From Burkholderiales bacterium (lineage in GTDB: Bacteria > Pseudomonadota > Gammaproteobacteria > Burkholderiales > SG8-39), in assembly GCA_038206915.1 (NCBI GenBank), contig JBBRAI010000002.1, forward strand, positions 5,510 to 69,509: a stretch of DNA of 64,000 nt, in the 5' to 3' direction. The notes beneath the pieces were generated by a model. The model saw nothing but the letters and a program-made list of their open reading frames with translations. It was not told the DNA's origin and searched no databases. How positions within the stretch are numbered: the first letter of the stretch is position 1; each line of letters starts with the position of its first letter. Both the position numbers and the translations under genes were made by a program. Positions 41,225 to 61,744 of this stretch are shown piece by piece.

Positions 41225-41330
41225 ATTTGGATCGAGCTAAGTCGGACAAAGTGCGGGCGTCAACCATTACAGAGCGCGCGCTGGATATCGACCGATGCGA
41301 GGTGGCCAGTTTAGACCTTATTCACCCATA

Positions 41331-43331: not shown

Positions 43332-44252
43332 CTACATCATCGCGCCAGCGCCACGGGCCGCCGCCACGTCTTCCTTCTGCTGCAGCGAAAATATTGAGGT
43401 ATAACCACCCGACCAGTCCGGCGGGATCAGACACGGGCGCGGGTCGTGGTGGGCGAACGCGGCGCGCTTGCCGCGGATGATCATCTGGTCGTGCTTGGGC
43501 TTGATCGGGTTCACGGTGTAGGGGAAGGCATCGGCCGAGGTCAGCGTATACAGAAGCAGCGGCCGGCCGAGGTCCGAGTCGTTCCTGGGGGAGCCGTGGA
43601 TAGTGCGGCAATTGTGCAGCGTAAGCGACCCGGCTGGGCCGGTGAGGTACACGGCCTTGGATAGCTCGATTCTGGCCAGATCAGTCGCGCTGAGGCAGCC
43701 GACCCAGTTGCCCTGGTCGTCATATTGGGTAAGCAGTGGTTCTATCAGGTGGCTCTTTGGGATCACGCCCAGCGGACCCTGATCCATGCCGCAGTCGTAG
43801 ATATAGGTGCCGACAGTCAGGGGCGAATAGTTGGTGTGCGGCCAGAACGAAATATCGTAGTGCCATTTCACCTCTTCACCGCCCTTTCCCCACTTGAAAT
43901 TCAGTTTGGAGTGGTGGAACTTCACGTCGGGCCCGACCAAGTCGGTCACCGCGTCTGGCATGACGGACTTGGTGCAGTATTCCCAGAATACCGGATGGTG
44001 CTCCGCCGGGTTCGACACGCGCCGCAGGCGCGGCGCATCGGGCCGGTGGTCGGGCTCCAGGTCGAAAATGGCGTCCGACGTAGTGACCTTGCGGCTGCGC
44101 TCAATCATCTCGTCGGTTGCGGCGCGCAGCTTATGGATCCATTCGTCGCCGATGATTTTTTCCAGAAGAATGTAGCCCTCGGAAAAATAGGCCTCGCGCT
44201 GCGCCTGGGTCAGCACGCGCGGGGGAATGGCAAGGATCTGTTCTGGGGTCAT
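43332..44252 (-). CDS. PhyH family Fe(II)/2-oxoglutarate dioxygenase, copy 3
   Basis: The 306-aa ORF follows an AAGGAG RBS. It has WHYDISFWPH (H-x-D) and the distal His in RTIHGSPRN. It is clearly paralogous to copy 2. Confidence 0.8.
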   Translation of the reverse strand: MTPEQILAIPPRVLTQAQREAYFSEGYILLEKIIGDEWIHKLRAATDEMIERSRKVTTSDAIFDLEPDHRPDAPRLRRVSNPAEHHPVFWEYCTKSVMPDAVTDLVGPDVKFHHSKLNFKWGKGGEEVKWHYDISFWPHTNYSPLTVGTYIYDCGMDQGPLGVIPKSHLIEPLLTQYDDQGNWVGCLSATDLARIELSKAVYLTGPAGSLTLHNCRTIHGSPRNDSDLGRPLLLYTLTSADAFPYTVNPIKPKHDQMIIRGKRAAFAHHDPRPCLIPPDWSGGYTSIFSLQQKEDVAAARGAGAMM

Positions 44253-44280: not shown

Positions 44281-44985
44281 CTAATGACCGAGGTAGAGCC
44301 TTTTGATAGCGTCGGTCTTCTGCAGATCTTCCGATCGCCCCTCGATCGATATGTTGCCGGATTCGAGCAGGTAGGCCCGCGTGGCGCACTCGAGCGCCAT
44401 GGCTGCGTTCTGCTCAGCCAGCAGGATTGTCATGCCGCCGTCCGCCAGCTTGCGCACGGTCTCGGCGATTTCGTCGACTACGATCGGCGCCAGACCCAAG
44501 GTCGGCTCGTCGAGCAACAGGCACTTGGGTTTCGCCATCAAGCCACGCCCAATCGCGAGCATCTGCTGCTCCCCGCCGGACATGGACCCGGCCTTCTGCG
44601 CGTGGCGCTCGCGCAGCCGTGGAAACAGACTGAATACGTATTCGAGATCTTCATCGGCATTGTCGCGATCTGTTCGATGGTAAGCGCCCATCACCAGATT
44701 CTCCGCCACTGTGAATTTGACGAAAATCTGGCGCCCTTCGGGCACTAGCACCAGGCCGCGGTTAACGCGCTCGTGGGTGGCCAGCGCGGAAATATCCGCG
44801 CCGTCGAGATGCAATGCGCCTGAAGTTGCCTTCTTTAAGCCTAGCGCCGTTCGCAAGGTCGTGGTCTTGCCGGCTGCATTGGCGCCGATCAGGGAAACGA
44901 CCTCGCCCGCGCCGACCGTCAGGCTGAGGTCCTTCAGCACATGGTTCTTACCGTAGTGAACGTTAATGCGCTCAAACTCGATCAT
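44281..44985 (-). CDS. ABC transporter ATP-binding protein (LivF-like)
   Basis: ORF 44281..45144 trimmed to MIEFERINVHYGKNHVLKDLS. Walker A is GANAAGKTT, the signature is MSGGEQQ and Walker B is LLLDEP. Confidence 0.85.
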   Translation of the reverse strand: MIEFERINVHYGKNHVLKDLSLTVGAGEVVSLIGANAAGKTTTLRTALGLKKATSGALHLDGADISALATHERVNRGLVLVPEGRQIFVKFTVAENLVMGAYHRTDRDNADEDLEYVFSLFPRLRERHAQKAGSMSGGEQQMLAIGRGLMAKPKCLLLDEPTLGLAPIVVDEIAETVRKLADGGMTILLAEQNAAMALECATRAYLLESGNISIEGRSEDLQKTDAIKRLYLGH

Positions 44986-45748
44986 GGCGATGGCCCAGAT
45001 AGGCTGCGACCACGTTGGGGTCGCGCAGTACTGCTTCAGGGGTGCCTTCGGCGATCTTGGCGCCATGGTGCAGGCTGATCGCGCGATCAGCAAGTTTGCC
45101 AAGAAAGCCGACCTTGTGGTCGATGACACACAGGGTCGTGCCATGCGTACGCAAGTCGCGCAAGACCGCTTCCAGATTTTCGATCTCGGTTTGGCCCAGA
45201 CCCGACGTCGGCTCGTCCAGCAGCAACAACTCGGGTTCGCACATCAGCGCCATCGCCACACCCAGCATCTTTTCTTCGCCGTAGGACAGTTCCGCCGCAG
45301 TCTGGTCGCGAGCCGTTTCGAGACGGCACAGACCGATCACCTCTGCGGCGCGCCGCCCGAGATCGCCTCCCGCGTGACCTGCTTCCGGGTTGAACAGCGT
45401 CGCGATGCGGCGCCAGCCCAGACGTCGTTTCAGCATCAGGTGCCCCGCGATCATCAGGTGCTCGAGCACGCTGAGTTCGGTGAATAGCTGGGGGTTCTGG
45501 AAAGTTTTCACCACGCCGGCCGCCGCGATGTCGTGCGGCCGGTTGCCGTGTATCTCGCGCGCCTTCCAGCGGATTGTCCCGCTTGACGGCACGAGCACGC
45601 CTGCGATGAGGCTGAGCAGCGTGGTTTTTCCAGAGCCGTTCGGCCCGAATACGCCGACGATTTCGCGCTGATCGATCGAAAAGGATATATCCGAAACGGC
45701 GGTGAGCCCGCCGAAACGCTTGGTCAGACCGGAGATTTCAAGCAGCAT
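44972..45748 (-). CDS. ABC transporter ATP-binding protein (LivG-like)
   Basis: ORF 44972..45790 trimmed to MLLEISGLTKRFGG. Walker A is GPNGSGKTT, the signature is LSYGEEK and Walker B is LLLDEP. Confidence 0.85.
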   Translation of the reverse strand: MLLEISGLTKRFGGLTAVSDISFSIDQREIVGVFGPNGSGKTTLLSLIAGVLVPSSGTIRWKAREIHGNRPHDIAAAGVVKTFQNPQLFTELSVLEHLMIAGHLMLKRRLGWRRIATLFNPEAGHAGGDLGRRAAEVIGLCRLETARDQTAAELSYGEEKMLGVAMALMCEPELLLLDEPTSGLGQTEIENLEAVLRDLRTHGTTLCVIDHKVGFLGKLADRAISLHHGAKIAEGTPEAVLRDPNVVAAYLGHRHDRV

Positions 45749-46694
45749 GCCGGCGCCGTCCGAGTGCGGACATCGCTCCATATATGCCATTTGGCATGAG
45801 GAGAATGGTGAAAATCAAGATAGCTCCGTAGACAATGGAGCGGATTTCGGCACTGAAGTGGATCAGGTGCGGTAGTGCGGTGAGTACCAGCGCTCCGATC
45901 ACTGGGGCTGCGACTGCGTTACGCCCACCCAACAGCACCATTGCAACAATTGCGAGCGACTGGTCGATCGACAGAAAGCCGGGTTCTATCGAACCGAGGT
46001 AAAAGGAATACAGGCTGCCGGTGATCGCCGCGATGATATTGCCGGCCACGAACGCCGCAATCTTGTAGCGGAATACATTGATGCCGAGCGTATCGCCCAG
46101 CTCGTCGTTCAGCCGAATGGCGGCGAAACAGCGCCCCATCCATGAATTCACCAGCCGCCAGCACACCAGCACCGTCAGCGCGAGCGAAACCAGGCTGACG
46201 TAATACCACATCGGCGTTCCGGCCAGTTTGACGATGCCTTGCCCGGGTATCCACAGGGTCGGCTTGTCTTGCAGGATGATGCCGAGCGAACCGTTGGTGA
46301 CGTCGTTCCAGTTCAGCACTACCAGCCGCGCCATTTCGGAGAAGGCGAGCGTCACCACGGCGAAGTAGAACTCCTTCAGCCTGAAGCGAAAGCAAATAGT
46401 TCCAACGATGATTGAAAGCACCATCACCAGGAAGGCGGCGAAGAGTGTGCCGATCCAGAACGAGACGCCCAGCCGGGCCATGGCGATATAGGTTGCGTAG
46501 GCCGAGATGCCGAAGGCGGCGGCGTGAAACATGGAGAGCTGTCCGGTGAAGCCGAAGATCAGGTTGAAGCTCACCGCCAGCATTCCGAGCAGGAAGGAAA
46601 ACACAAGGATGGTCAGGACAAAGTCGCTTTTCACCATTGTAGGCAGCAGGGCGAGAACCGCGACTACGGCGAGCAGGCGCGCGCCCGCGCTCAT
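45738..46694 (-). CDS. branched-chain-amino-acid-type ABC permease (LivM-like)
   Basis: The 318-aa polytopic protein shares an ATGA overlap with the upstream permease gene. Confidence 0.85.
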   Translation of the reverse strand: MSAGARLLAVVAVLALLPTMVKSDFVLTILVFSFLLGMLAVSFNLIFGFTGQLSMFHAAAFGISAYATYIAMARLGVSFWIGTLFAAFLVMVLSIIVGTICFRFRLKEFYFAVVTLAFSEMARLVVLNWNDVTNGSLGIILQDKPTLWIPGQGIVKLAGTPMWYYVSLVSLALTVLVCWRLVNSWMGRCFAAIRLNDELGDTLGINVFRYKIAAFVAGNIIAAITGSLYSFYLGSIEPGFLSIDQSLAIVAMVLLGGRNAVAAPVIGALVLTALPHLIHFSAEIRSIVYGAILIFTILLMPNGIYGAMSALGRRRHAA

Positions 46695-47551
46695 TTGCGC
46701 CCTGCGAACAATCCGGCGGGTTTGAACAGCAGGATCGCGACCAGAAAGACAAGGCCGTAGGCATCGCGGAAGGCGATGGGCAGGTAGATCGAGCCGACGC
46801 CCTCGGTCACGCCAAGTATGACGCCGCCGAACAGCGAGCCCATCACGCTGCCGATGCCGGCAAGGATGGCCGACTCGACGGCCTTGAGAATGTACATACT
46901 GCCCATGGTCGGCTCGATTGTATAAAGGCTTGCGTACAGCGCGCCGCCCAGTCCGGCGAGGCCGGTCGAGTAGACGACGACGGCGGACTGAAGCAGCTTG
47001 GTGCGCACGCCCATTAGCTCCGCCGCCTCCGGGTTCTGCGCGTATGCGTAGGCGGCACGGCCGATCCAGGTGCGCGTGAGCGCAGCGTAGGTGGCGAAGA
47101 TGACTGCGAGCAGCACCAGAAACACCACCAGCTTCATCTTCGGCACTATTAGACCGAAGATATGGAATACGCCGGGAAGGACGTAATCCATATCCTTCGG
47201 GGTGGACGTCCAGATGAGCAATGCCGCACCTTCCATGACGGCAATCAGGCCGATTGAAACGAGGAGGCCGTTGACCAGGTTGTTGCGCGTGAAGCGGAAC
47301 AGCGTCTGGTCCGCGATCAGTCCGGCGAGCGCGGTAATCGCCACCGCGCTGGGCACTGCCAGCGCGTAAGGAAGATGCGCGCCGTCGGTCAGGTACCAGG
47401 CCATGTAGGCGCCCAGCATCATGAACACGCCGAGGGCGAAGTTCACGATGCCGGTGATGCCGAACGTGAGGGTGACGCCGAGGGCGACTATCCCGTACAG
47501 CGTTCCGACTATTGCGCCATTGAGGAGCTGGCCGACTATCAGTTGCCCCAC
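46691..47551 (-). CDS. branched-chain-amino-acid-type ABC permease (LivH-like)
   Basis: The 286-aa polytopic protein has a GTG start 4 nt after the SBP stop. Confidence 0.8.
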   Translation of the reverse strand: MGQLIVGQLLNGAIVGTLYGIVALGVTLTFGITGIVNFALGVFMMLGAYMAWYLTDGAHLPYALAVPSAVAITALAGLIADQTLFRFTRNNLVNGLLVSIGLIAVMEGAALLIWTSTPKDMDYVLPGVFHIFGLIVPKMKLVVFLVLLAVIFATYAALTRTWIGRAAYAYAQNPEAAELMGVRTKLLQSAVVVYSTGLAGLGGALYASLYTIEPTMGSMYILKAVESAILAGIGSVMGSLFGGVILGVTEGVGSIYLPIAFRDAYGLVFLVAILLFKPAGLFAGRK

Positions 47552-47555
47552 GGAA

Positions 47556-48734
47556 TTAATTTGGTTCGATGTGGGTCACGGTGATCGCGCCACCTTTCTT
47601 CATATGCAGGATGTCGAAGTCGAATACCGCCTCGCCGGTCTTGTCATAGCGGATATTCCAGACGCCATGATACGTAAACGACATCAGCGCCTGCTTGACC
47701 TTGGCTACGTCCTCGACCGTGCCCGCCTTCTTCATTGCGTCGACCAGCATATACACGTGGTCATAGCAGGACGAAGAGCAAAGCGGTGCCTGATCGTACG
47801 GGAAATCACGTTTATAAAACGCCTTGTATGCTTCGATAAATGCCTTGGTCTTCGGTTCGGTCTTCTCGGCCTGCTCGAAATACTTCGGCAGGTAGGCGAT
47901 ATAGTCGTCGATCAGGTCTTTGTTCTTCAGGGCAGGCCCCATCGACCCGCGTACCGTGAAGAATTTCTTGAACAAGCCCGTCTCCGTCGCTTGACGCACG
48001 ATATCGTAGAGCACGGCGTCGACATAACCTGGAAACAGATACTCGGGCTTGTTGGCCGCGAGCTTGGCGAGCGGGGCGGAGAAGTCCTTGGTGCCGGGCT
48101 CGAACATCTCCACCTGCAGGTCGATGCCTGCGGCCTTGAAGATAGGCGCATAAATGTCCACCGCTACCTTGCCGAAGGCGTCGTTCTGGAACAGCATCGC
48201 CGCCTTCTTTACGCCCTGCTTCTTGAGGTAATTGACCATCAACTGACCGAAGCCATCGGATCCCGCGTCCCAGTTCCAGGTGCGCAGGAGGTACTCGTGA
48301 TCGGGTGTGCCAAGCTTCGCATGGATGGCGGTGGCGCCGCCCATCAGCAGGAACTTGCCGTTGTTCTGCGTCAGATAGGGCTCGATGCCGTTGAATACGT
48401 TGGTGAGAAACGGACCGAATATGTACTTGACCTTGTCCTGCTCCAGCAGCTGCTTGGCTATGATCTGCGCTTCCTGCGGATTTGCGCGCGTGTCAGGCGA
48501 GATCAGTTCGAGCTTGTAGGTTTTGGCACCTACCTTGAAGCCGCCGGACTTGTTGATTTCTTCAACCGCCAGCTTCGCCCCCTGGCTGCCCATCCAGCCG
48601 TAGGTGGCGAGCGTGCCGGTCTGCGCTTCGATCTGCCCCAGTTTAACGATGTCCTGCGCTGCGGCTGGCGCCGCAGTGCACGCGGCCAGCAAAGTTGCGG
48701 CCGCGCACATTTTCAACAGATTGCCTGCATTCAT
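47556..48734 (-). CDS. ABC transporter substrate-binding protein (Leu/Ile/Val-binding / amide-urea family fold)
   Basis: The 392-aa ORF follows a GGAGGAG RBS and has a signal peptide ending AAAQ. It is the first gene of a Liv-type operon. Confidence 0.8.
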   Translation of the reverse strand: MNAGNLLKMCAAATLLAACTAAPAAAQDIVKLGQIEAQTGTLATYGWMGSQGAKLAVEEINKSGGFKVGAKTYKLELISPDTRANPQEAQIIAKQLLEQDKVKYIFGPFLTNVFNGIEPYLTQNNGKFLLMGGATAIHAKLGTPDHEYLLRTWNWDAGSDGFGQLMVNYLKKQGVKKAAMLFQNDAFGKVAVDIYAPIFKAAGIDLQVEMFEPGTKDFSAPLAKLAANKPEYLFPGYVDAVLYDIVRQATETGLFKKFFTVRGSMGPALKNKDLIDDYIAYLPKYFEQAEKTEPKTKAFIEAYKAFYKRDFPYDQAPLCSSSCYDHVYMLVDAMKKAGTVEDVAKVKQALMSFTYHGVWNIRYDKTGEAVFDFDILHMKKGGAITVTHIEPN

Positions 48735-48825
48735 GATCTCTCTCCTCCTGTGGATTGAACCAACTTCGTGCTAGTCCGGCGCCGTGCAACGCGTGAAATT
48801 TGACCGTCGGACTGGTGATATATCA

Positions 48826-48883
48826 TTAGTATGTTTGTAACATGCTACTTGAGCGCCAGCGGCGAATCAAGCTGCGCGTTCCG
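48826..48883 (-). promoter_or_regulatory. sigma70-like promoter plus downstream TGATATATCA operator for the Liv-type importer operon
   Basis: On the minus strand TTGATT (48865-48870) is followed by 17 nt, then TAGCAT (48842-48847), then the palindrome TGATATATCA (48826-48835). The upstream block ATCAAGCTGCGCGTTCCG (48866-48883) is duplicated at 51850-51867. Confidence 0.55.
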
Positions 48884-48914: not shown

Positions 48915-50825
48915 TCAGCTAGCCATCAGCCGCTTGGCCAACTCAACCGCTTCGCCTGCATCGCCGGCATAACCGTCGGCCCCTATGTCATGCGCGAATT
49001 TTTCGTTCACCGCGGCGCCGCCGACGATGATTTTTACCCCGTCACGCAGCCCCGCATTCGTCAGCGCCTTGATCACCTTGCCCATTTCCGTCATGGTCGT
49101 TGTCAGCAGCGCGGACAGTCCGACGATGTCGGGTTTGTACTCGGCTACTGCTTTGACGAACGCCTCGGCCGACAGGTTGATCCCCAGATCCTTCACCTCG
49201 AAGCCGACTCCGCGCAGCATGGTGACCACCATGTTCTTGCCAATATCGTGAAAATCGCCTCTCACGGTGCCTACGAGCGCCCTTCCCGTGACCTCGCGCT
49301 TGGCCGCGGCCAGATGCGGTTCGAGCACCTTCAACCCCTCGCTCATGGCCCGGGCGGACAGCAGCACCTGCGGAATGAACAGCTCGCCGGCGCCGAACTT
49401 CACGCCTATCGCCTGCATGGTCTCGAGCATGCCGTGATCGAGAATCTGCTTGGCGCTCAAGCCCCGATCCAGCAGCGCCTGTACATGCGCGCCGATTTCC
49501 TTGTGCCGGCCCTTGCGCACGTCTTCGCGTACGCTTTCGTAGTCCTGCGCCTCTGCGGGCGGGAGCGTCAGCCGAATCTTGACTTCCTCAAGGTGCGCCG
49601 CGGAGAGCGGCCGGGCTGAGCCGGCTTGAAGCGGCAGCCGCGCCTCCTTTTCCGCGCGCTCGCCGATGCGGATCAAACGCTCGAAGACTGCGTTGGGCGG
49701 CGTGGTGTCGGCGATGCCGAGGATGAAGCGCCTGCCCGGGGCTATGACTTTGAACAGATGATCCAGATAGGCTTCGAACTCCTCCCCGGTCGCGGATTCG
49801 GCCAGCACCATGTTCGAGGGAATGCCGCCGAAGATCGTCAGTTTTTCACCCCATCGCTGGTAGTACTCCTCGATCTTCACCTTGGTCATGGGATAGGGGC
49901 ATATCGCCTCGGCGACATGCATGCCGGAATCTCGAATCAGGTCCATCAGCCCGAAATTCTCGCCGTCGCAATGCACCAGCGACACCTTGCCTTTCTCCCC
50001 CAAGGTGTCGGAGGCCTTGCGGATCCAGGGCGTGATCTCCTTTTCGAAGTACTCCGGGTAGGTAATCATGTCGTCGACGTTGGCGCCCCACAGCACCAGC
50101 TCGGCCGGGGAATCGGCGATGATCTTCAAGCCCTGTTCGAAAAAGTGCGACACGCTGTCGGCCAGTGTGCGCATCTCCTTTTGGTAGTCGTTGTAGTGGT
50201 AGTAAAAGTCGGTCGCGTCCACGAACTCCTTCTGGATGTGATGCATGGGGGAGCACGCCAGGCCGATCATGGTGCCGGGGACACCGTCCTCGCCGACGTA
50301 TTGCTGCCAGGCGCGAAAGCGCTCGAAGCTGGGAACGAGCGTGAGATTCTCGAACAGGTAGCCGACGACCTTGTAGTCTTCCGGCCGTTTGATCACGTGC
50401 TCTTCGATCCAGGTGATCGAAGCGCCGGCGCGGCGCATTTCGTCCGAATACATGGTTTTGGTGCTCACGCTGCCTACCGGCGTGTGGTACAGCACCGTGG
50501 TGTAATCGCCCTGTCTTTTCACCTCGATATCGATTGTGGGTGAAAATTTTAAGTCGAATACCATTTCCTTCAGGCAGTACAGACCCAGTGCGCGATGCAG
50601 CATGTCATCGGGTTTGTCCACCTTGAGGAATTCCGGCACGATTTTGTGCAGCGCCCATCCTTGGGCGCGCGAAATCTCGTCCTGGGTGCGGCCCTTGTGC
50701 TGCTTCGGCAAGGTATCGAAGGCGACATTGGCGTTGTACCAAAGATCGATTCTGGGAACATAGGGAAGCGTGTCCGGCATCTCTCCCTTCAGCGCCGCCA
50801 GGATTCTTTGTTTGTGGGTTGGCAC
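48915..50825 (-). CDS. fusion protein: URO-D/MtaA-like methyltransferase domain + B12-binding domain (CmuA-like architecture), copy 2
   Basis: ORF 48915..50960 trimmed to the in-frame GTG at 50825, preceded by GGAGGAG 5 nt upstream. This aligns VPTHKQRILAALKGEMPDTLPYVPRIDLWY with the N-terminus of copy 1. The B12 motifs are GDFHDIGKN, SALLTTT and VGGAA. Confidence 0.8.
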   Translation of the reverse strand: MPTHKQRILAALKGEMPDTLPYVPRIDLWYNANVAFDTLPKQHKGRTQDEISRAQGWALHKIVPEFLKVDKPDDMLHRALGLYCLKEMVFDLKFSPTIDIEVKRQGDYTTVLYHTPVGSVSTKTMYSDEMRRAGASITWIEEHVIKRPEDYKVVGYLFENLTLVPSFERFRAWQQYVGEDGVPGTMIGLACSPMHHIQKEFVDATDFYYHYNDYQKEMRTLADSVSHFFEQGLKIIADSPAELVLWGANVDDMITYPEYFEKEITPWIRKASDTLGEKGKVSLVHCDGENFGLMDLIRDSGMHVAEAICPYPMTKVKIEEYYQRWGEKLTIFGGIPSNMVLAESATGEEFEAYLDHLFKVIAPGRRFILGIADTTPPNAVFERLIRIGERAEKEARLPLQAGSARPLSAAHLEEVKIRLTLPPAEAQDYESVREDVRKGRHKEIGAHVQALLDRGLSAKQILDHGMLETMQAIGVKFGAGELFIPQVLLSARAMSEGLKVLEPHLAAAKREVTGRALVGTVRGDFHDIGKNMVVTMLRGVGFEVKDLGINLSAEAFVKAVAEYKPDIVGLSALLTTTMTEMGKVIKALTNAGLRDGVKIIVGGAAVNEKFAHDIGADGYAGDAGEAVELAKRLMAS

Positions 50826-50900
50826 GCGTTCTCCTCCGTGGCGGCCGAAGTTAGCTGTCCGGGAATCGGTCCGGCCCCTCGGCATCGCCTCCATGCCGCC

Positions 50901-50947
50901 TAACATATCAGTAATATATGAGCTGGCGGTTTGATCCAGATCAAAGC
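50901..50947 (-). promoter_or_regulatory. 47-nt conserved regulatory block upstream of fusion copy 2 (paralogous to 54481-54527)
   Basis: On the minus strand it reads gcTTTGATCTGGATCAAAccgccagCTCATATATTACTGATATgtta. By my hand alignment 39 of 47 positions are identical to the block upstream of the corrinoid-protein operon. Confidence 0.6.
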
Positions 50948-50994
50948 GATCACAGATCATCGGCCGCAGCGCGGCCGGCTATTGCCGGCTGGAT

Positions 50995-51759
50995 TCAGGC
51001 AGGCTGCCGGGTGAATGGCTTCAGCGCGTGTTTCGCGATCGTCTGCTTGAGTTCGGGCTTGATATGCTTCTCGCTGTAGCCGTTGAATACGTGTCCGAGC
51101 AGGCCGCGGTCCAGATCGCTGGTGCCCATGATCCAGTCGGCGATGGGAAACGTCAGGTTCATGTTGATGTCCATCATGATGCCCTGATTGTGATGCGCCG
51201 TATGGTGGCGGCGGATGGTGTTGACGAACGGCATATTTTGCACGAACCAGTTCTCATGCACGTGGCAGCAGTAGTGGAAGGTTTCGTAAATCAGATACTG
51301 GCCAACCATCGTAACCAGCAGGATGTAGCCCGCATTAGGGTTGATCAGCCAGCCGAGCAGCAGCGCGAATGGCATGCCCAGGCCGATAAACGTGAATAAC
51401 GCGCGCCACGGGAAGAAAATAATGCGGAACTCCCGGGTCGAATCCACGGTCATCTCGCCGTCGGTGAAGTACTGGTGGTGTTGGCGGGTGTGGCGGTCGT
51501 AGATGGCGCGCAGCGCCCACACGTCGCGCAGCCGGTGCATGACGTATTTGTGTATCCACCATTCGAAAATATTCGAGAAACAGAATACCGGCACCACCAG
51601 CAGCCATTCCCATCCTGAATCGTGCAGGCGCGATATGCACCAGGCGATCGTCGCGATGCCGGTGGAGTACATCACGCCGATGTGAACCAAACCGTTGTAA
51701 AGAGGATGGATCTGTGCAGTGTATTCTTCGCGGAACTTGCGCTGTCGCTCTGTCATCAT
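50995..51759 (-). CDS. fatty acid hydroxylase / sterol desaturase superfamily membrane di-iron oxygenase
   Basis: The 254-aa protein has TM segments and three His boxes: HKYVMH, HTRQHH and HHTAHH. A GGAGGA RBS precedes it. Confidence 0.8.
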   Translation of the reverse strand: MMTERQRKFREEYTAQIHPLYNGLVHIGVMYSTGIATIAWCISRLHDSGWEWLLVVPVFCFSNIFEWWIHKYVMHRLRDVWALRAIYDRHTRQHHQYFTDGEMTVDSTREFRIIFFPWRALFTFIGLGMPFALLLGWLINPNAGYILLVTMVGQYLIYETFHYCCHVHENWFVQNMPFVNTIRRHHTAHHNQGIMMDINMNLTFPIADWIMGTSDLDRGLLGHVFNGYSEKHIKPELKQTIAKHALKPFTRQPA

Positions 51760-51801: not shown

Positions 51802-51867
51802 CGTGATATATCACGCGTATATCTTATGCTACGCGCGCCGCCGGCTTTTATCAAGCTGCGCGTTCCG
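51802..51867 (-). promoter_or_regulatory. sigma70-like promoter plus downstream CGTGATATATCACG operator for the hydroxylase gene
   Basis: On the minus strand TTGATA (51849-51854) is followed by 17 nt, then TAGCAT (51826-51831), then a perfect 14-bp palindrome (51802-51815). The geometry matches that at 48826-48883. Confidence 0.55.
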
Positions 51868-52053: not shown

Positions 52054-52749
52054 TCAGAAGTCGATGGTCACCGTCCCCCGCGTAAACTTGGCCACGGCGT
52101 CCAGCAGTTTGTCCATCGCTTTGGCCGCGGCGGACTCGTTGCCCGAGCCGATACTACGCGAGAGGTTGGCATGCAGCTTGGCGGTGAGTGGCAAGTCCGC
52201 CGCCTGCTTGTAATGAATGTACCAGAAGCGCCGCGACAGAGAGTGCATCAGGCCCATAGCGCCGGAGGCAAATTCGTTGCGCGCCGCGATCACCGAAAGT
52301 TCATTGAATTCGCGATCCACCCGCATGAACGTAACATCGTTGTTGGTCTTGGCGCTCGCTTCGAATTGGCGCGCGAGCGCGAGGAAGCGTTCGCGCTCCT
52401 CGGGCGTCGCGCGCCGTGCCGCGCTCCTCGCCACCAGGCGCTCTACTTCGCGCCGCACCTCAAGCAGCCTCAACTGGCTCTTCACATTGATCTCGGAAAC
52501 GATGATTCCCCGCCGCGGCAGTATATTGACCAGGCGCTCGCGTGCGAGACGTTGCAGTGCCTCGCGTATGGGCGTGCGCCCGATCCCGAGACGTTGCGAC
52601 AGGGCGGTCTCGGACACGGTGCTGCCCGGTGGCAACTTCAGCGTGACGATCATTTCCTCAAGAATGCCGTAGGCGCGTTCGGTCAGCGAAATATCCGCTT
52701 CGGATGCGACTTTTTCCGGCTTTCTGACGGTGGTTTTTTGTGGTTTCAC
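52054..52749 (-). CDS. GntR family transcriptional regulator (FadR/FCD subfamily)
   Basis: The N-terminal winged HTH reads ETALSQRLGIGRTPIREALQRLARERLV, and the C-terminal domain is all-helical. The GTG start overlaps the PanB-like stop (GTGA). Confidence 0.85.
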   Translation of the reverse strand: MKPQKTTVRKPEKVASEADISLTERAYGILEEMIVTLKLPPGSTVSETALSQRLGIGRTPIREALQRLARERLVNILPRRGIIVSEINVKSQLRLLEVRREVERLVARSAARRATPEERERFLALARQFEASAKTNNDVTFMRVDREFNELSVIAARNEFASGAMGLMHSLSRRFWYIHYKQAADLPLTAKLHANLSRSIGSGNESAAAKAMDKLLDAVAKFTRGTVTIDF

Positions 52750-53627
52750 TGGTGCTTGCGTTTTTCGACGAGGTTGAGAAATTTTTCGTACTCCTTCTCG
52801 TCCACGCCATAGCTGTGATCGTCGTCCGGGAAGGTGCCGGCTTTTACGTCGGCGATGTAGGCCTTGATGCCGTTCACCGCGACCTCGGTCAGATTGGCAT
52901 AGCGCTTGGTGAACTTCGGCTTGAAGTCGGTGAATACGCCGAGCAGATCATGGCAAAGCAGGATCTGGCCATCGGTACCGGCGCCAGCGCCTATGCCTAT
53001 GGTCGGGATTTCGAGCTGCTTCGATATCACCGCGGCGATCTTCGCCGGCACCGCTTCAAATTCGAGCATGAAGCAGCCCGCATCCTGAATCGCGAGCGCG
53101 TCGCCGAGTATCTTCATCGCCGCTTCCGCGCTGCGTCCCTGGATGCGGAAGCCGCCGAACATAGCGATGGTGTGCGGCGTGAGGCCGATGTGCGAGGCGG
53201 TCGGAATACCGGCATCTACCAGCGCTTTGAGTATGTGCGCCTGAGATTTTCCGCCCTGCGGCTTTACCGCGTCGCTGCCGGCATCCTGCATGAAGCGCGT
53301 TGCGTTGAGCAGGGCGCGATCGATCGTGTTATAGCTCTGGTAGGGCATGCAGCCCAGTACGAAGGTGGCGGGCGCGCCACGGCGGATGGCCGCCGCGTGC
53401 ATCACCATCATGTCCATGGTGGCGGGAATCGTGCTCGAATGTCCATGCGCGATCATCGCCAGGCTGTCCCCGACCACGGCAACGTCGACGCCCGCGGTTT
53501 CGGCCCATTTGGCCGCCGTATAATCGGGCACCGACATGTAGACCATCTTCTCACCGCTGTTCTTGGATTCGCGTATTTCCTGGATGGTCCGCTTTTTGCG
53601 TTCCGTGCCTGGGCTTGCCTGGGCCAA
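52746..53627 (-). CDS. 3-methyl-2-oxobutanoate hydroxymethyltransferase (PanB) family protein, copy 2
   Basis: ORF 52746..53717 trimmed to the TTG at 53627, which has an AAGGAG RBS 6 nt upstream. PanB motifs are present: VGDSLAM, RRGAP, VKPQGG, SHIGLTPH, LEFEAVP and GIGAGAGTDGQILL. Confidence 0.8.
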   Translation of the reverse strand: MAQASPGTERKKRTIQEIRESKNSGEKMVYMSVPDYTAAKWAETAGVDVAVVGDSLAMIAHGHSSTIPATMDMMVMHAAAIRRGAPATFVLGCMPYQSYNTIDRALLNATRFMQDAGSDAVKPQGGKSQAHILKALVDAGIPTASHIGLTPHTIAMFGGFRIQGRSAEAAMKILGDALAIQDAGCFMLEFEAVPAKIAAVISKQLEIPTIGIGAGAGTDGQILLCHDLLGVFTDFKPKFTKRYANLTEVAVNGIKAYIADVKAGTFPDDDHSYGVDEKEYEKFLNLVEKRKHQ

Positions 53628-53647
53628 ATTGGACTCCTTGTCGTGTG

Positions 53648-53672
53648 ACTGATATGCGTGCAGTATATCAGT
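53648..53672. promoter_or_regulatory. inverted repeat ACTGATAT-N9-ATATCAGT in the PanB2/Fe-S-protein divergent region
   Basis: Read directly. The arms are 8 bp and perfect. The repeat lies 21 nt upstream of the PanB2 start. Confidence 0.55.
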
Positions 53673-53762
53673 TGTGTTTTCAGCAGTGTAATGCGCACCG
53701 GGCGACAAGTGTGCCACCTTACAGGTGTCCTGGCGCGTGCCGCTGCAGGCGCGGAGCAGGCA

Positions 53763-54476
53763 ATGAACTTAAGCGATGTAGAGGCGAGTCTGGCGCAGGC
53801 CGGACTCAGTTCGCGCGGTGCATTTCATCCGGTCGCGCGCGATGGCGTACCGCTTTTCGCTCCGGGCGTCGCGGCGCGCACAGTGGTGCTTGCCGGCAAT
53901 GCGGGGCCGCGCATGTGGCGCCGCTTCGCCGGCGTCCGTGCCGCGCGCGGGATCTCCCTGGACGCATGGTCGGAAACCGTCCTGAACGGTCTCGCTGAGC
54001 AACTCGGTGCGGCGGCCGCGTACCCGTTCAAGCGTCCCTACCTCCCGTTCCAGCGCTGGGCCAGGCGCGCGCAAGCCTGCCATGGGTCGCCCTTGGGGCT
54101 GCTGATCCACCCGGACTACGGCGTGTGGCACGGCTATCGCGGGGCGCTGTTGTTCGCGCAGGAACTGAAGTTGCCCGAACCCGATCGCCGCCCGAGTCCC
54201 TGCGCAAGCTGCGCGGAGCGACCCTGCATGTCGGCATGTCCGGTCGGCGCATTTTCCGACATGCGCTACGACGTTCCCGCCTGCGCGCGCTACCTGGCGG
54301 CTACGCCGGAACCTGCGTGCATGGAGATCGGCTGCCTCGCGCGCCATGCCTGTCCGGTCGGGCGCGACTACCGCTATGCGCCGGAGCAGGCGCGGTTCCA
54401 CATGCTGTCGTTCCGGCGCAACCATCAGCCCGGCGCAGCTGCGGCACAAAACCAGGGGGCGAAGCGCCCTGTGTAA
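53763..54476 (+). CDS. 4Fe-4S cluster protein resembling the C-terminal part of epoxyqueuosine reductase (QueG) / reductive-dehalogenase-type enzymes
   Basis: ORF 53658..54476 trimmed to MNLSDVE. The segment GLLIHPDYGVWHGYRGALLF...PCASCAERPCMSACPVGAF matches the QueG-like pattern and has a C-x2-C-x..-C-x3-C-P ferredoxin motif. A further Cys cluster follows (CARYL...CMEIGCLARHACPVG). Confidence 0.5.
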   Translation: MNLSDVEASLAQAGLSSRGAFHPVARDGVPLFAPGVAARTVVLAGNAGPRMWRRFAGVRAARGISLDAWSETVLNGLAEQLGAAAAYPFKRPYLPFQRWARRAQACHGSPLGLLIHPDYGVWHGYRGALLFAQELKLPEPDRRPSPCASCAERPCMSACPVGAFSDMRYDVPACARYLAATPEPACMEIGCLARHACPVGRDYRYAPEQARFHMLSFRRNHQPGAAAAQNQGAKRPV

Positions 54477-54576: not shown

Positions 54577-55212
54577 ATGGCCGACATACTCGAGACAATC
54601 AAGGAGATGTGCATCAAGGGCAAGCGCGTGGAAACGCTGGCGGAGGTGAAGCGCGCGCTTGCCGACGGCATCGACGCCAAGACGGTGATGACGCAGAGTC
54701 TGATACCGGCGATGGCGGTGGTGGGCGAAAAGTATTCCTCGGGCGAGTTCTTTTTGCCGCAGATGATGCTCGGTGCGCGCGCGATGAGCGAAACGATGGC
54801 ATTCCTCAAGCCCCACTTGGTGCAGGGAAGTTACGAGAAGAAGGGCAAGGCGGTGGTCGGGACGGCGCAGGGCGACTTTCACGATATCGGCAAGAACATC
54901 GTCAAGATCATGCTCGAGGGCGGCGGCTATGAAGTTGTCGACCTCGGCGTGGATGTGAGTCCGCAGGCGTTTGTCGACGCGGTGCGGAAAGAGGCACCGC
55001 GCTTTGTCCTGGTCAGCGCGCTGATCACGCTCACCATGGACAGCATGCGCAAAACCGTCAAGGCGCTGGAAGGCGCCGGGGTGCGCGGCCAGGTCGTGGT
55101 GGGGATCGGCGGCGCGCCGGTGACGCAGAAGTTCGCCGACGAAATCGGCGCCGACTTCTACAGTCAGGACGCGTACCAGTGCGTCGAGAAGTGCAACCAG
55201 TTGCTGCATTGA
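54577..55212 (+). CDS. corrinoid (cobalamin-binding) protein, MtaC/MtbC/MtvC-like
   Basis: The 211-aa protein starts MADILETIKEMCIKG, with a GGGAG RBS. It has a helical cap and a B12 Rossmann domain with GDFHDIGKN, SALITLT and IGGAP. Confidence 0.9.
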   Translation: MADILETIKEMCIKGKRVETLAEVKRALADGIDAKTVMTQSLIPAMAVVGEKYSSGEFFLPQMMLGARAMSETMAFLKPHLVQGSYEKKGKAVVGTAQGDFHDIGKNIVKIMLEGGGYEVVDLGVDVSPQAFVDAVRKEAPRFVLVSALITLTMDSMRKTVKALEGAGVRGQVVVGIGGAPVTQKFADEIGADFYSQDAYQCVEKCNQLLH

Positions 55213-55235
55213 GCGGCGCCCTAGGAGCGAGCGAA

Positions 55236-56312
55236 ATGACACCCAAAGAAAGAGTGATGACGGCATTGCGCCGCGGCCAGCCCGACCAGGTGCCGTGGGT
55301 CGAAAACGAAGTCGAGGAGATGTTGCAGATCCAGATCATGGGCGGGCGCACCGACTACACGCCGGGCGAACTGTGCCGCGCCCTGGGCATGGACGGCTTC
55401 GGCTATCACTTTCCTACTGGCGGCGCGGGTTCGGCCAGCCAGGCGCTGCAGACCTCCAAGTCGATCAAGGAGGCCTTCTACTTCCCGAAAAAGATCACTT
55501 TCGACTTCGTGCCACCGTGGATCGCCGATATGGGCGTGGAGCCGAATGGGCGCACCTTCGTCAAAAAGGGTCTGCTGGTCGATCGCGATTCGCTCAAGCT
55601 GTTCGACGAGTTCCTGCCCGATCCGAACCATCCGGCGCGCTACGAGCAGATCGCGAAGTGGATCGAGCAGTACCGCGAGGACTACGCCGTGTACGCGCGA
55701 ATCCGCCTGGGTACCGCGAGCACCATCGAAAGCATGGGGCTGGACGTGTTCTCGCTCATGCTCTACGACGATCCGGATCTGGTGAAGGAGATCCATCGGC
55801 GCTTTTCGGAATGGACAGTGAAGGTGCTCGAGAACCTGAACAAGCTCGACCTCGATTTCTACTGGGCCAACGACGACCACGCCGACACCAAGATGCCCTG
55901 GGTCAACATGGAGATGTACGAGGAGTTTTTCTTCCCTTACCAGAAGATGGTCGCCGACGCGATGAAGAAGCCCTGGGCGTTCCATAGCGACGGCAACCTG
56001 TTTCCGATACTCCCCGGGCTGGTGAAGCTCGGCATGAACGCGATCCACCCGATTCAGCCGGCGGCGATGGATATCGCCAAGATGAAGGCGGACTACGGCT
56101 CCAAGGTCTGCCTGATCGGCAACATCGATCTGGATTACACCCTGACGCTGGGTACGCCCGAAGAGGTCGACAAGGAGGTCAAGGAGCGCATCGCGGTCGC
56201 CGGCAAGGGCGGCGGCTATATCATCAGCAGCGCCAACAGCCTTACCGACTATTGCAAGATCGACAACGTCTGGGCCATGTCCAAGGCGCTGAAGAAATAC
56301 GGCAAGTACTGA
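55236..56312 (+). CDS. uroporphyrinogen decarboxylase (URO-D) family methyltransferase (MtaA/MtvB-like)
   Basis: The 358-aa protein starts MTPKERVMTALRRGQPDQVPWVE. A URO-D-type TIM barrel pattern runs through ...GGGYIISSANSL. It lies immediately after the corrinoid protein. Confidence 0.75.
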   Translation: MTPKERVMTALRRGQPDQVPWVENEVEEMLQIQIMGGRTDYTPGELCRALGMDGFGYHFPTGGAGSASQALQTSKSIKEAFYFPKKITFDFVPPWIADMGVEPNGRTFVKKGLLVDRDSLKLFDEFLPDPNHPARYEQIAKWIEQYREDYAVYARIRLGTASTIESMGLDVFSLMLYDDPDLVKEIHRRFSEWTVKVLENLNKLDLDFYWANDDHADTKMPWVNMEMYEEFFFPYQKMVADAMKKPWAFHSDGNLFPILPGLVKLGMNAIHPIQPAAMDIAKMKADYGSKVCLIGNIDLDYTLTLGTPEEVDKEVKERIAVAGKGGGYIISSANSLTDYCKIDNVWAMSKALKKYGKY

Positions 56313-57109
56313 TGCTGATCGTCGCCGAACGTATTAATGCCTCGCGCAAAGCGATCCGCGCCGCGCTGGAAAAGCTCGACGCCGACGCGATAGTGAATGA
56401 GGTGCGCATACAGGACGCTGCCGGGGCGAATTACATCGACCTGAACGGCGGCACCTTCCCCGGACGCGAAACCGAATTGCTTTGCTGGCTGGTGGACATC
56501 GCGCAGCAGGCGACGCAGCTGCCGCTGTGTCTGGACAGCCCGGACCCGGCGGCGCTGGAAGCGGCGCTGAAGCGGCTGAAAGGGCCGCGGCCGATGATCA
56601 ATTCGATCAACCTCGAACCGGAGCGCTTCGAGCGCACGCTGCCGCTGGCGCGTGAGCATGGCGCCAAGCTGATCGCGCTGGCGCAGGGCGAGGACGTGCC
56701 CGCGGCGAGCGCGGCGGAGAAGGCCGAGCTTGCCGGCCGCCTGATCGAGCAGCTGGTGCGCGCCGGAATGCCGCTCGATGACATCTACGTCGATCCGCTG
56801 GTATTTCCGGTGGGGACCGATTCGGCATCGGGGCTGGCCACGGTAACCGCAATGCGCGAGATCATGGCGCGCTATCCCGGGGTGCACACCATCTGCGGCC
56901 TGACAAACGTATCGCACGGCCTGCCGGCACGCAAACTGATCAATCGCACGTTCCTCGCCGGTGCGATTGCCAACGGTATGGACGCGGCCATCATCGATCC
57001 GACCGATACCCAGCTCATGGCGACGATGTTCGCAGCAGAAGCGGTTTTCGGGCGCGACGAATACTGCGTCAACCTGATCGAAGCGTTCCAGGCGGGCAAA
57101 CTGGGCTGA
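56312..57109 (+). CDS. pterin-binding methyltransferase (methyl-corrinoid:tetrahydrofolate methyltransferase; MeTr/CmuB/MtvA-like)
   Basis: The 265-aa protein starts MLIVAERINASRK with a TGATG overlap. It has YIDLNGG and the conserved ICGLTNVSHGLPARKLINRTFLAGAIANGMDAAIIDP, a dihydropteroate-synthase-like fold signature. Confidence 0.8.
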   Translation: MLIVAERINASRKAIRAALEKLDADAIVNEVRIQDAAGANYIDLNGGTFPGRETELLCWLVDIAQQATQLPLCLDSPDPAALEAALKRLKGPRPMINSINLEPERFERTLPLAREHGAKLIALAQGEDVPAASAAEKAELAGRLIEQLVRAGMPLDDIYVDPLVFPVGTDSASGLATVTAMREIMARYPGVHTICGLTNVSHGLPARKLINRTFLAGAIANGMDAAIIDPTDTQLMATMFAAEAVFGRDEYCVNLIEAFQAGKLG

Positions 57110-57155
57110 GCCGATCCGGCAGTCGCGTCGTTTCCCAAGTACCGCACGATGAACC

Positions 57156-59051: not shown

Positions 59052-59054
59052 CCC

Positions 59055-60521: not shown

Positions 60522-60533
60522 GGAGGAGTTCTC

Positions 60534-61301
60534 ATGAATATTTCAACATGGCGCGCCGACCCGGTAGCGACGAACGCCCGGCCGACCGTCATCATCGCCT
60601 GCCGCGTAATGCAAGAGCATCTGCAGCAGCTCCTGCCCGCTACCACGGCCGTGACCTATCTTGAAATCACGCTGCACAACACGCCGAAGAAACTTGCCGC
60701 CGCGCTGCAGCACGAAATCGATCTGGTCGAGCAGCCGAGCAATATTCTGGTCGGCTACGGACTGTGCGGCAACGGCCTGCTCGGCGTGAAGTCCGGGCCG
60801 CATACCCTGATCATTCCGCGCACGCACGACTGCGTCGCCATCTTCCTGGGTTCGCAACAGCGCTACGTACAGCGCTTCTTCGCGAATCCGAACACCTACT
60901 ACCTGACCCGCGGCTGGCTGGAGGCGAAGGACGAACCGCTGCAGGACTACCTCGACTACGTGCGCGACTATGACGAGGAGACCGCCGACTATCTGGTCGA
61001 AATGAAATACCGCCACTATCGCAAGCTGTGCATGGTCGGATTTTCGCAGGAGGAACTGGAGGAATGCCGGCCGATGGCCATGCGCGTGGCGGAGTTCTGC
61101 GGCAAGCGCTGGAACATGGAATACGAGGAGATCGTGGGCTCGACCTCCATGCTCCAAAATCTGCTCAAGCTGCCAGCGCAGCTCGAATCGGGCAACAACG
61201 ACGAATTCGTCGTGGTCCGGCCGGGCGGGGAGATCGAGGTCGATATGTTCCTGCGCGACGGGGAGTCGGCGCCGGCACAAACTGCGGCCCGGGATGGCTA
61301 G
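60534..61301 (+). CDS. DUF1638 domain-containing protein
   Basis: The 255-aa protein has ILVGYGLCGNGLLG...LIIPRTHDCVAIFLGSQQRY...YYLTRGWLE, the pattern I associate with DUF1638. That family is usually found next to corrinoid methyltransferase genes. Confidence 0.7.
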   Translation: MNISTWRADPVATNARPTVIIACRVMQEHLQQLLPATTAVTYLEITLHNTPKKLAAALQHEIDLVEQPSNILVGYGLCGNGLLGVKSGPHTLIIPRTHDCVAIFLGSQQRYVQRFFANPNTYYLTRGWLEAKDEPLQDYLDYVRDYDEETADYLVEMKYRHYRKLCMVGFSQEELEECRPMAMRVAEFCGKRWNMEYEEIVGSTSMLQNLLKLPAQLESGNNDEFVVVRPGGEIEVDMFLRDGESAPAQTAARDG

Positions 61302-61648: not shown

Positions 61649-61744
61649 TCGGCGCGCTCGGATGCTTTGCCGCGAAGGTTACGAAATACCTCGAGACTGA
61701 GGCTACCCGTTTGCTTCGCAACGGTGTAAGATCGCGCTACTCGT

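Follow-up and report, generated by a model that had tools for sequence, protein, structure and literature searches.

Why does one locus keep two diverged fusions of a methyltransferase with a corrinoid carrier, each standing near importer genes, and what does the second of them do? We addressed this question in a stretch of 64,000 nucleotides from a Burkholderiales bacterium (assembly GCA_038206915.1, contig JBBRAI010000002.1, positions 5,510 to 69,509), which is called the window below and whose own numbering is used throughout. The gene in question is named copy 2, and its paralog on the same strand copy 1. A first-pass annotation had read the two fusions, each next to a different importer class, as two substrate-specific modules feeding one shared downstream pathway. 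We arrive at a different reading and give it a probability of roughly 0.7: copy 2 is predicted to act as the first, substrate-specific methyltransferase in a demethylase that depends on corrinoid and tetrahydrofolate, and to bring its own corrinoid carrier, copy 1 would use a different methyl donor, and the importer in this locus would be exchangeable. The parts of the two genes are as follows (pLDDT, predicted local distance difference test).

48915-50825, minus strand: copy 2 fusion gene, 636 amino acids plus stop, with a predicted UroD-fold methyltransferase domain, a linker and a corrinoid-binding domain (open reading frame, identical public protein, Pfam, AlphaFold)
50832-50837, minus strand: ribosome-binding site GGAGGA of copy 2, 6-nt spacer to the GTG at 50825 (read from the sequence)
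49632-50825, minus strand: N-terminal domain, residues 1-398, divergent barrel of the UroD superfamily, extended by a beta-rich segment at about residues 90-142
49956-49973, minus strand: motif H285-C-D287-G-E289-N290, in which H, D, E and N do not vary across the 87 family sequences
49551-49631, minus strand: inter-domain linker, residues 399-425, predicted disordered, pLDDT <50
48918-49550, minus strand: corrinoid-binding domain, residues 426-636, helical cap plus Rossmann fold (Pfam, PDB sequence search, Foldseek)
49239-49256, minus strand: DxHxxG motif D524-F-H526-D-I-G529, the histidine being the lower ligand to cobalt (read from the sequence)
41331-43262, minus strand: copy 1 fusion paralog, 643 amino acids, starting 69 nt past the stop of a PhyH gene

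Copy 2 is a real, conserved gene. The open reading frame list gives a longer frame (48915-50960) that opens upstream at an ATG, and we prefer the GTG at 50825 because of the spacing of its ribosome-binding site, because a public NCBI protein of 636 amino acids is 100% identical to it, and because orthologs in related loci have an ATG at the same aligned start position. The product of 636 residues from a GTG, as first annotated, is thus retained. The GAGGA core is kept at the matching position in copy 2 orthologs, and nearly all close homologs are 635-648 amino acids long. The AlphaFold model of the whole protein has a mean pLDDT of 79.9.

Residues 426-636 of copy 2 are predicted to be a standard methyltransferase-type corrinoid module of the "His-on" kind. 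Both Pfam models scored above their cut-offs (B12-binding_2, E = 3e-15; B12-binding, E = 1.5e-27). Sequence search against the PDB gave 1y80, a Moorella corrinoid protein (E = 4e-52), and MttC 7xcn (E = 6e-40), Foldseek gave MttC, MtmC and 4jgi, and MetH was also among the sequence and fold matches. The helical cap, the Rossmann fold and the DxHxxG motif of the MtaC/MttC/MetH type are all present; the motif lies in GDFHDIGKN at residues 523-531, and D524, H526 and G529 are invariant in an alignment of 34 sequences. Among NCBIfam models this domain scores best with the Ruegeria-type MtgC model, reaching 216 bits where the cut-off is 370 bits.

The N-terminal domain had to be placed by fold comparison because a search of its profile against PDB sequences gave chance-level matches only (E ~0.6). 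A fold search with the whole protein was swamped by the corrinoid domain, so the N-terminal domain was modelled and searched alone. The model has a mean pLDDT of 83.5, with the beta-rich extension predicted confidently, and its top 17 PDB matches in Foldseek were all uroporphyrinogen decarboxylases (E = 3e-10 to 1e-6, template modelling (TM) score 0.46-0.63); no other fold gave a convincing match. An hhalign comparison with the stand-alone MtaA/CmuA-like methyltransferase of the window (55179-56312) gave a probability of 76% and E = 2e-5, and paired HCDGEN of copy 2 with HSDGN of that enzyme. Pfam URO-D matched copy 2 with the C-terminal half of the model only (E = 9e-6, 25.3 bits, cut-off 23.9).

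Several results speak against placing the domain in this way. Copy 1 stays under the same Pfam cut-off with 21.5 bits, no NCBIfam model, TIGR01463 (mtaA_cmuA) included, matched the N-terminal domain of either copy at E <= 0.001, and the fold matches are moderate (TM 0.5-0.6, root-mean-square deviation ~10 Å). As to the MtaA/CmuA family, its UroD (beta/alpha)8 barrel was found, and a full match to the curated sequence models (TIGR01463, PF01208) was not. In MtaA/MtbA-type enzymes the motif HxCxnC binds zinc, and it is not conserved among the 87 family sequences, where H285 is invariant and position 287 is always D. The invariant residues of the family are D251, D252, H285, D287, E289, N290 and E306, while position 286 is C in 60 sequences and T in 27, and position 309 is C in 64 and T in 23; the cysteines at these two positions could mimic a zinc site. 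Zinc is missing from some UroD-superfamily members such as CdmB and MtvB and is not universally required (PMC13222342), so its missing motif does not exclude methyltransferase function in the copy 2 family. The superfamily holds the first methyltransferases for aryl methyl ethers (MtvB, OdmB, VdmB, MtoB) and halomethanes (CdmB, CmuA, MecC/E), as described in a 2026 structural study of CdmB that also reports barrel extensions shaping the substrate channel (PMC13222342), and the thioether enzymes MtsA and MtpA belong to it as well (bioRxiv 10.1101/548461). Judging from the model, the N-terminal domain of copy 2 is a divergent, uncharacterised branch of the UroD superfamily.

Copy 1 is built in the same way: its UroD-fold barrel is divergent, its linker disordered and its corrinoid domain of the His-on kind. 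BLASTP aligned the two proteins over the full length with 331 of 638 identities (52%), 69% positives, 3 gaps and E = 0, which agrees with the estimate by eye of about half identity, and all four sequence blocks quoted with that estimate are present in the alignment. The linker sequence is little conserved between them. The calculation of dN/dS (nonsynonymous to synonymous substitution rates), which had been proposed for the two copies, was uninformative for that pair, since dN is 0.41 and dS ~1.0 is saturated, leaving a ratio of 0.4 without meaning. It was informative among orthologs, with 0.06-0.10 for copy 2 (85-88% identity) and 0.11 for copy 1 (83% identity).

In a neighbour-joining tree copy 1 and copy 2 fall into separate clades, each with orthologs in other Burkholderiales genomes, and both paralogs occur in one locus in the window and in three other species (L006, L008 and L010). 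Because the clades are separate with orthologs of their own and the ortholog dN/dS is low, the two copies are ancient paralogs under purifying selection and not a recent duplication. The existence of two diverged fusions, as first annotated, is thus borne out. Thirty-six positions are fixed differently between the two clades, most densely at residues 61-100 and 121-140 in the barrel extension, which fits distinct substrate specificity and is no proof of it.

What reaction could such a protein take part in? The candidate partners stand on the opposite strand.

54577-61301, plus strand: divergent core operon with genes for a corrinoid protein, a UroD methyltransferase, a pterin-binding methyltransferase, an activase, a methylenetetrahydrofolate reductase (MTHFR) and a DUF1638 protein (Pfam and NCBIfam)

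The stand-alone corrinoid protein (54577-55212) and the stand-alone UroD methyltransferase (55179-56312) are followed by the pterin-binding methyl-corrinoid:folate methyltransferase (56252-57109; NF005719, 284 bits against a cut-off of 259 bits). The activase is of the RACo/RamA type and carries a 2Fe-2S domain. RamA-like proteins and DUF1638 have been proposed as the pair that reactivates corrinoids in aerobic bacteria, from genetic inference in Phaeobacter and an observation in Ruegeria (PMC5764234, PMC12478193). All candidate partners are encoded within 10 kb.

With these parts a route can be proposed. The UroD-fold domain of copy 2 would take a methyl group from an imported methylated compound and put it on the Co(I) of the corrinoid in its own C-terminal domain, the pterin-binding methyltransferase would hand the methyl on to tetrahydrofolate, and the MTHFR-like enzyme would oxidise methyl-folate to methylene-folate. 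The RACo/RamA-like activase, with DUF1638, would re-reduce oxidised cobalt. Copy 1 would carry out the same chemistry with a related but different methyl donor. Taken together, the locus is predicted to form a full folate-linked demethylase regulon in a betaproteobacterium that uses oxygen.

The closest known system is that of CmuA and CmuB in Methylobacterium extorquens CM4. CmuA is a 67-kDa two-domain chloromethane methyltransferase/corrinoid protein, and its partner CmuB is a separate methylcobalamin:folate methyltransferase (PMC3621897). The likeness covers the aerobic proteobacterial host, the size of ~67 kDa, the UroD-superfamily N-terminal domain, the corrinoid C-terminal domain, the separate methylcobalamin:tetrahydrofolate methyltransferase and the folate-linked oxidation of the methyl group, which proceeds via MetF in CM4 (PMC3621897, PMC13222342). 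Copy 2 shows both the CmuA order, methyltransferase first and corrinoid domain second, and a pterin-binding folate methyltransferase partner. Unlike CmuA, its N-terminal domain falls below the NCBIfam MtaA/CmuA model, and its locus has binding-protein-dependent importers, PhyH and di-iron oxygenases, PanB and a RACo-type activase.

The O-demethylases and related systems of anaerobes (MtvABC, OdmABCD, VdmB, MtoABCD, CdmBCA) share with the copy 2 system the set of first methyltransferase, corrinoid protein, second methyltransferase and activator, with folate as acceptor. Their first methyltransferases are likewise UroD-fold barrels that carry extensions in their N-terminal part, and do not always need zinc (PMC13222342). 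They differ in that methyltransferase and corrinoid protein are unfused, that the hosts are strict anaerobes and that the substrates are aryl methyl ethers or haloalkanes; for the N-terminal domain of copy 2, sequence searches of solved structures and curated models turned up no match. In MtsD, MtsF and MtsH of Methanosarcina acetivorans, which act on small methylated sulfur compounds, a corrinoid domain is likewise fused to a UroD-family (MT2-type) methyltransferase domain (bioRxiv 10.1101/548461). There, however, the corrinoid domain comes first, the acceptor is coenzyme M and not folate, and the hosts are archaeal methanogens. MtgBCD of Ruegeria pomeroyi, a glycine betaine demethylase and split methionine synthase system, resembles the window in its aerobic bacterial host and its RamA-like plus DUF1638 reactivation (PMC12478193), but MtgB belongs to the MttB family rather than the UroD family, the components are unfused, and the copy 2 corrinoid domain stays far below the MtgC cut-off, as given above.

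The resemblance to Ruegeria also bears on the direction of methyl flow. Methyl-corrinoid transfers are reversible, and RamA-like proteins with DUF1638 accompany split methionine synthases (PMC5764234, PMC12478193), so the system might instead put folate methyl onto an acceptor for biosynthesis or detoxification, or be part of a split methionine synthase like those of Phaeobacter and Ruegeria; that the best NCBIfam match of the corrinoid domain is an MtgC model would suit this. We consider it very improbable, given that the scanned locus genes showed no homocysteine-binding (S-methyl_trans) domain, that an MTHFR-like gene lies inside the core operon, and that three solute importers, a GntR-type regulator and oxygenases are what a catabolic locus typically has. 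Demethylation thus stays the predicted direction.

Two observations concern the surroundings of the core operon. Just past the DUF1638 gene lies a cobalamin riboswitch (Rfam RF00174, 93.8 bits; 61731-61944, plus strand), followed from ~62047 by an open frame of ~650 amino acids, TonB-dependent-receptor-like and with a signal peptide, which runs off the window end. The demethylase locus appears to carry its own B12-regulated gene for corrinoid uptake. On its other side, between the divergent promoters, is a gene for a cysteine-rich protein of ~250-270 amino acids (53658-54476, plus strand) with faint QueG/NapG-type iron-sulfur similarity; it is kept in L003/L004 (74% identical) and weakly in L057 (30%), and its product might be an electron donor for the activase.

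Is the importer next to copy 2 a guide to its substrate? The minus-strand row reads panB, GntR/FCD regulator, FA_hydroxylase, copy 2, Liv system, PhyH and copy 1, continues past copy 1 with two sugar-type permeases, PhyH and an SBP_bac_8 binding protein, and beyond that, at 32207-37063, come a further PhyH, a second panB and a tripartite ATP-independent periplasmic (TRAP) transport system. The genes nearest to copy 2 are these.

52054-52749, minus strand: GntR/FCD-family regulator (Pfam GntR and FCD), kept after panB in related loci
50995-51759, minus strand: membrane protein of the di-iron fatty-acid-hydroxylase family (Pfam FA_hydroxylase, E = 2e-8), directly upstream of copy 2
47556-48734, minus strand: Liv-type (HAAT family) periplasmic binding protein (Pfam Peripla_BP_6, E = 1.5e-48)
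44281-47551, minus strand: two Liv permeases and two ATPases (two BPD_transp_2, two ABC_tran, BCA_ABC_TP_C)
43332-44252, minus strand: PhyH-family Fe(II)/2-oxoglutarate dioxygenase, "PhyH copy 3" (Pfam PhyH, E = 5e-23)

Pfam confirms the first annotation of copy 2 as lying upstream of a complete Liv-type ATP-binding cassette (ABC) system and PhyH copy 3. All five parts of a Liv/HAAT system are contiguous (44281-48734), with permeases at 46691-47551 and 45738-46694 and ATPases at 44972-45790 and 44281-44985, one of the latter with a BCA_ABC_TP_C tail. The nearest solved structures of the binding protein are Leu/Ile/Val-binding proteins, weakly (E = 2e-18), and those of PhyH copy 3 are ectoine and leucine hydroxylases; among solved structures no close relative with a defined ligand was found for the Liv and TRAP binding proteins or PhyH. 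The gene order was then compared with close relatives, for which the identity given is that of the N-terminal domain of the copy 2 ortholog.

Window, 100%: FA_hydroxylase, copy 2, Liv system, PhyH, copy 1
L003/L004, 90%: order as in the window (Liv 86-92% identical), copy 1 missing
L006/L007, 88%: FA_hydroxylase, copy 2, TRAP (DctPQM), PhyH, copy 1
L008, 90%: FA_hydroxylase, copy 2, TRAP, PhyH, copy 1
L010, 88%: as L006, with a distant Liv-like cassette between hydroxylase and copy 2
L057, 83%: TRAP, PhyH, core operon, copy 2

Among these relatives a Liv system follows copy 2 in the window and L003/L004 only, where the Liv permeases and ATPases of L003 are 87-92% identical to those of the window. 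The proposal that orthologs would keep the fusion with its importer class fails here, since a TRAP system takes the place of Liv in L006/L007, L008 and L010. The PhyH of L003, L006, L008, L010 and L057 is 86-92% identical to that of the window whichever importer is present, and FA_hydroxylase adjoins a fusion in nearly all Burkholderiales loci, in two gene orders. Because TRAP fills the Liv slot while PhyH stays, the importer beside copy 2 is, on this comparison of gene order, a replaceable cassette whose steady partners are the PhyH dioxygenase and the FA_hydroxylase. Nor is copy 1 tied to a sugar-type ABC system: in a clade ~70% identical to copy 1 the genes run panB, GntR, fusion, FA_hydroxylase, TRAP, with no such system. 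Among 85 family loci besides the window, TRAP is the most frequent neighbour (~38), sugar-type systems in 5 and Liv-type systems in 4.

These comparisons bear directly on the view that the locus holds two self-contained modules (copy 2 with Liv and PhyH copy 3, copy 1 with the sugar-type ABC system), in which importer class tells substrate identity and a common downstream pathway is shared. Both paralogs are kept under purifying selection in four species, the window included, their fixed differences are densest in an extension whose equivalent in CdmB shapes the substrate channel (PMC13222342), and there is a single set of downstream enzymes; all this speaks for the view. It is at odds with TRAP in the Liv slot of loci whose copy 2 orthologs are 88-90% identical, with TRAP beside the copy-1-like clade, and with the packing of the Liv array, which has its own conserved promoter/operator block (see below), against PhyH and copy 1 rather than copy 2. 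Module boundaries are also not fixed: L003 has Liv and PhyH but lacks copy 1, and the importer-PhyH unit of L057 lies 7 kb away from copy 2. We regard the view as doubtful in this form, and the module boundaries drawn in the first-pass annotation are probably wrong. Two of its elements, two plausible specificities and one set of downstream enzymes, pass into the reading that we prefer, while importer class as evidence does not. A shared downstream route is reasonable because the window has one pterin-binding methyltransferase, one activase, one DUF1638 gene and one MTHFR gene.

Other features of the row were noted beside these genes. The sugar-type ABC importer after copy 1 (41225-41330 region) lacks an ATPase gene of its own both in the window and in L006, and in L008 and L010 an ABC ATPase-like match lies between copy 1 and the first permease. 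In L003/L004 the slot after PhyH (17773-20016) holds a truncated panB fragment (84 amino acids) and transposase fragments, which suggests that the copy 1 module was lost there through insertion-sequence activity. The window has two full-scoring paralogs of panB (ketopantoate hydroxymethyltransferase), at 52746-53717 (minus strand) and 36200-37063 (plus strand). In related Burkholderiales loci one panB always heads the row with the GntR regulator, and PanB-like genes (45-47% identical) stand beside the fusion in four listed deltaproteobacterial loci (L005 and L016 being one contig). A possible role of PanB is to move folate-bound one-carbon units onto a 2-oxoacid.

Does copy 2 drive the importer genes behind it? 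Three non-coding blocks bear on this point.

50901-50945, minus strand: regulatory block upstream of copy 2, palindrome TTTGATCTGGATCAAA (50945-50930) plus CATATATTACTGATATGTTA (50920-50901)
48815-48870, minus strand: block between the copy 2 stop and the Liv binding-protein gene, TTGATT (48870-48865), 17 nt, TAGCAT (48847-48842), palindrome TGATATATCA within 48815-48826
51803-51854, minus strand: promoter-like site upstream of the hydroxylase gene, TTGATA-17-TAGCAT, then the perfect palindrome GTGATATATCAC

The block upstream of copy 2 covers ~45 nt, with the layout TTGAT-N5-ATCAAA, ~10 nt, and then CATATATT-N-CTGATATGTTA. It is kept in five other loci (L003, L006, L008, L010 and L021), recurs before the stand-alone corrinoid protein gene of the window, and in L010 stays with the fusion although another cassette separates the hydroxylase from it. 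This conservation backs a promoter block belonging to copy 2 itself, as had been annotated, without a match to the sigma-70 consensus.

The second block is found in five related loci between the fusion stop and the first importer gene, whether this encodes a Liv binding protein or DctP, and the sequence flanking it is otherwise diverged (mean column identity 49%). At the homologous position the consensus scan gave sigma-70-like matches in L003, L008 and L021. From this block on, the genes are closely packed, with gaps of 4, -4 (an overlap), 28 and 69 nt through PhyH into copy 1. Because the block and PhyH are kept whichever importer fills the slot, the importer array probably has its own promoter, and copy 2 probably precedes the Liv array and does not drive it. 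Copy 2 thus heads the array, as annotated, in position only, with the separate conserved block lying between them.

The palindrome GTGATATATCAC was found with at most two mismatches at four sites in the window, against 0.76 expected. All four are intergenic, ahead of genes of this locus, and conserved at matching places in related loci: at 35204 between TRAP and PhyH genes, at 48815 between copy 2 and the Liv binding-protein gene, at 51803 upstream of the FA_hydroxylase gene and at 54517 upstream of the corrinoid protein gene. One common regulator is suggested because the half-sites TGATAT/ATATCA are shared among the blocks, and we infer that the GntR/FCD regulator at 52054-52749 probably uses the palindrome as its operator. 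Through this shared motif, copy 2 and the importer are likely co-regulated. The regulon would then consist of separately promoted units, namely the hydroxylase, copy 2, and the series importer, PhyH, copy 1, second importer, PhyH, which would share the TGATAT/ATATCA operator, probably bound by the adjacent regulator. The importer slot would be an exchangeable cassette, with Liv ABC in the lineage of the window and TRAP in sister lineages. Two negative results count against these unit boundaries: the sigma-70 consensus scan found no promoter at the copy 2 upstream block, and no terminator after copy 2 was detected in the window, so that read-through into the importer genes is possible. No riboswitch or leader was found upstream of copy 2, the sole riboswitch in 30000-64000 being the cobalamin one described above.

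One operator motif common to all units of the window would also suit a scheme in which the fusions and the stand-alone UroD methyltransferase and corrinoid protein act serially on one compound with several methyl groups, or on its stereoisomers, with redundant importers. Importer classes are indeed interchangeable, and in anaerobic relatives the fusion nearly always has as neighbours another UroD methyltransferase, a corrinoid protein and just one TRAP importer. Against it, three distinct pairs of importer and PhyH in the window would be costly for one substrate, L003 has copy 2 without copy 1, and no multiply methylated substrate is pointed to by the data. We therefore rate this scheme as clearly unlikely, and continue with two fusions for two related methyl donors.

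Which donor might copy 2 use? With low confidence, and from the gene neighbourhood, we propose a small carboxylic acid bearing a methyl group, whether a hydroxy-, oxo- or amino-acid. Carboxylates are the usual cargo of TRAP systems. In L006, the binding protein of the TRAP system in the slot most resembles proteins of the lactate-, ketoacid- and sorbitol/mannitol-binding types. The distant Leu/Ile/Val-binding relatives of the Liv binding protein and the ectoine and leucine hydroxylases nearest to PhyH, both noted above, are further hints. Besides the loci with the isomerase described next, 9 more encode LarA-like 2-hydroxyacid racemase homologs, bringing nickel-pincer isomerases to ~17 loci altogether; glycerate kinase occurs in 5 family loci and acyl-CoA ligase in 7, and PanB, which acts on 2-oxoacids, is a frequent neighbour. 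Neighbour clustering based on open reading frames gave antisense artefacts in GC-rich loci, and only clusters confirmed by Pfam or NCBIfam were kept. It weakens the proposal that these neighbours come mostly from distant anaerobic relatives. That three binding-protein-dependent importers belong to the regulon argues for a solute and against a gaseous donor such as chloromethane.

A nickel-pincer isomerase (NCBIfam NF052515 "group 22", above cut-off) is encoded directly upstream of the fusion, often overlapping it, in 8 loci of deltaproteobacterial/Adiutrix relatives, for example L001 (8712-10004) and L055 (4765-6069). A link between nickel-pincer isomerases and corrinoid methyltransferases was not met in the literature found, in which no search was aimed at that link. 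A cysteine-dioxygenase-like gene in L006/L007 had prompted 3-methylmercaptopropionate as a candidate substrate; it was dropped, as the gene is not in the window or L003.

How widespread is the family? A word-indexed protein search with copy 2 gave 1432 proteins at E <= 1e-10, the best 120 of which are full-length fusions with 64-100% identity. Source names, where there are any, read "hypothetical", "corrinoid protein" or "cobalamin-binding", and none was functional among those looked up. An exhaustive search with the N-terminal domain alone gave 170 clusters (50% identity) at E <= 1e-30, including many stand-alone proteins of ~395 amino acids; all those examined were unnamed. Relatives were found in 144 stretches of species-representative genomes. 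The best 80 of these 144 loci all come from metagenome-assembled or otherwise uncultured genomes (0 of 80 from cultured isolates) and belong to Burkholderiales and Betaproteobacteria, many Desulfobacterota, Candidatus Adiutrix and a few others. In the plasmid collection no record covered at least 80% of copy 2, and pCMU01/cmuA was not among the 25 matches listed (118 more records). Literature searches that paired corrinoid methyltransferases with PhyH, with fusions, with TRAP transporters or with aerobic hosts brought up no paper on the fusion family.

Corrinoid methyltransferase systems other than methionine synthase are seen as mainly anaerobic, with CmuA and the recently reported MtgBCD as the few aerobic exceptions (PMC12478193). 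A bolder idea, which we regard as speculative and unlikely as a whole, is that these fusions form a corrinoid demethylase family, oxygen-tolerant and so far unrecognised, whose substrates are small methylated hydroxy-, oxo- or amino-acids with no known demethylation route. In aerobic Burkholderiales the demethylation would be coupled to Fe/2-oxoglutarate and di-iron hydroxylases and to PanB-type one-carbon transfer onto a 2-oxoacid. If true, groundwater and freshwater bacteria would have a new means of obtaining one-carbon units. Once the methyl donor is identified, hundreds of genes from groundwater, lakes, peat and termite guts, in both Burkholderiales and Desulfobacterota, would gain an annotation, and an overlooked pool of methylated metabolites could come to light. 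For annotation in general, the class of an adjacent importer is here a poor guide to enzyme specificity.

Further along the window a 6S RNA gene (Rfam RF00013, 61.8 bits) was identified at 31184-31364 on the minus strand, with no relation to copy 2.

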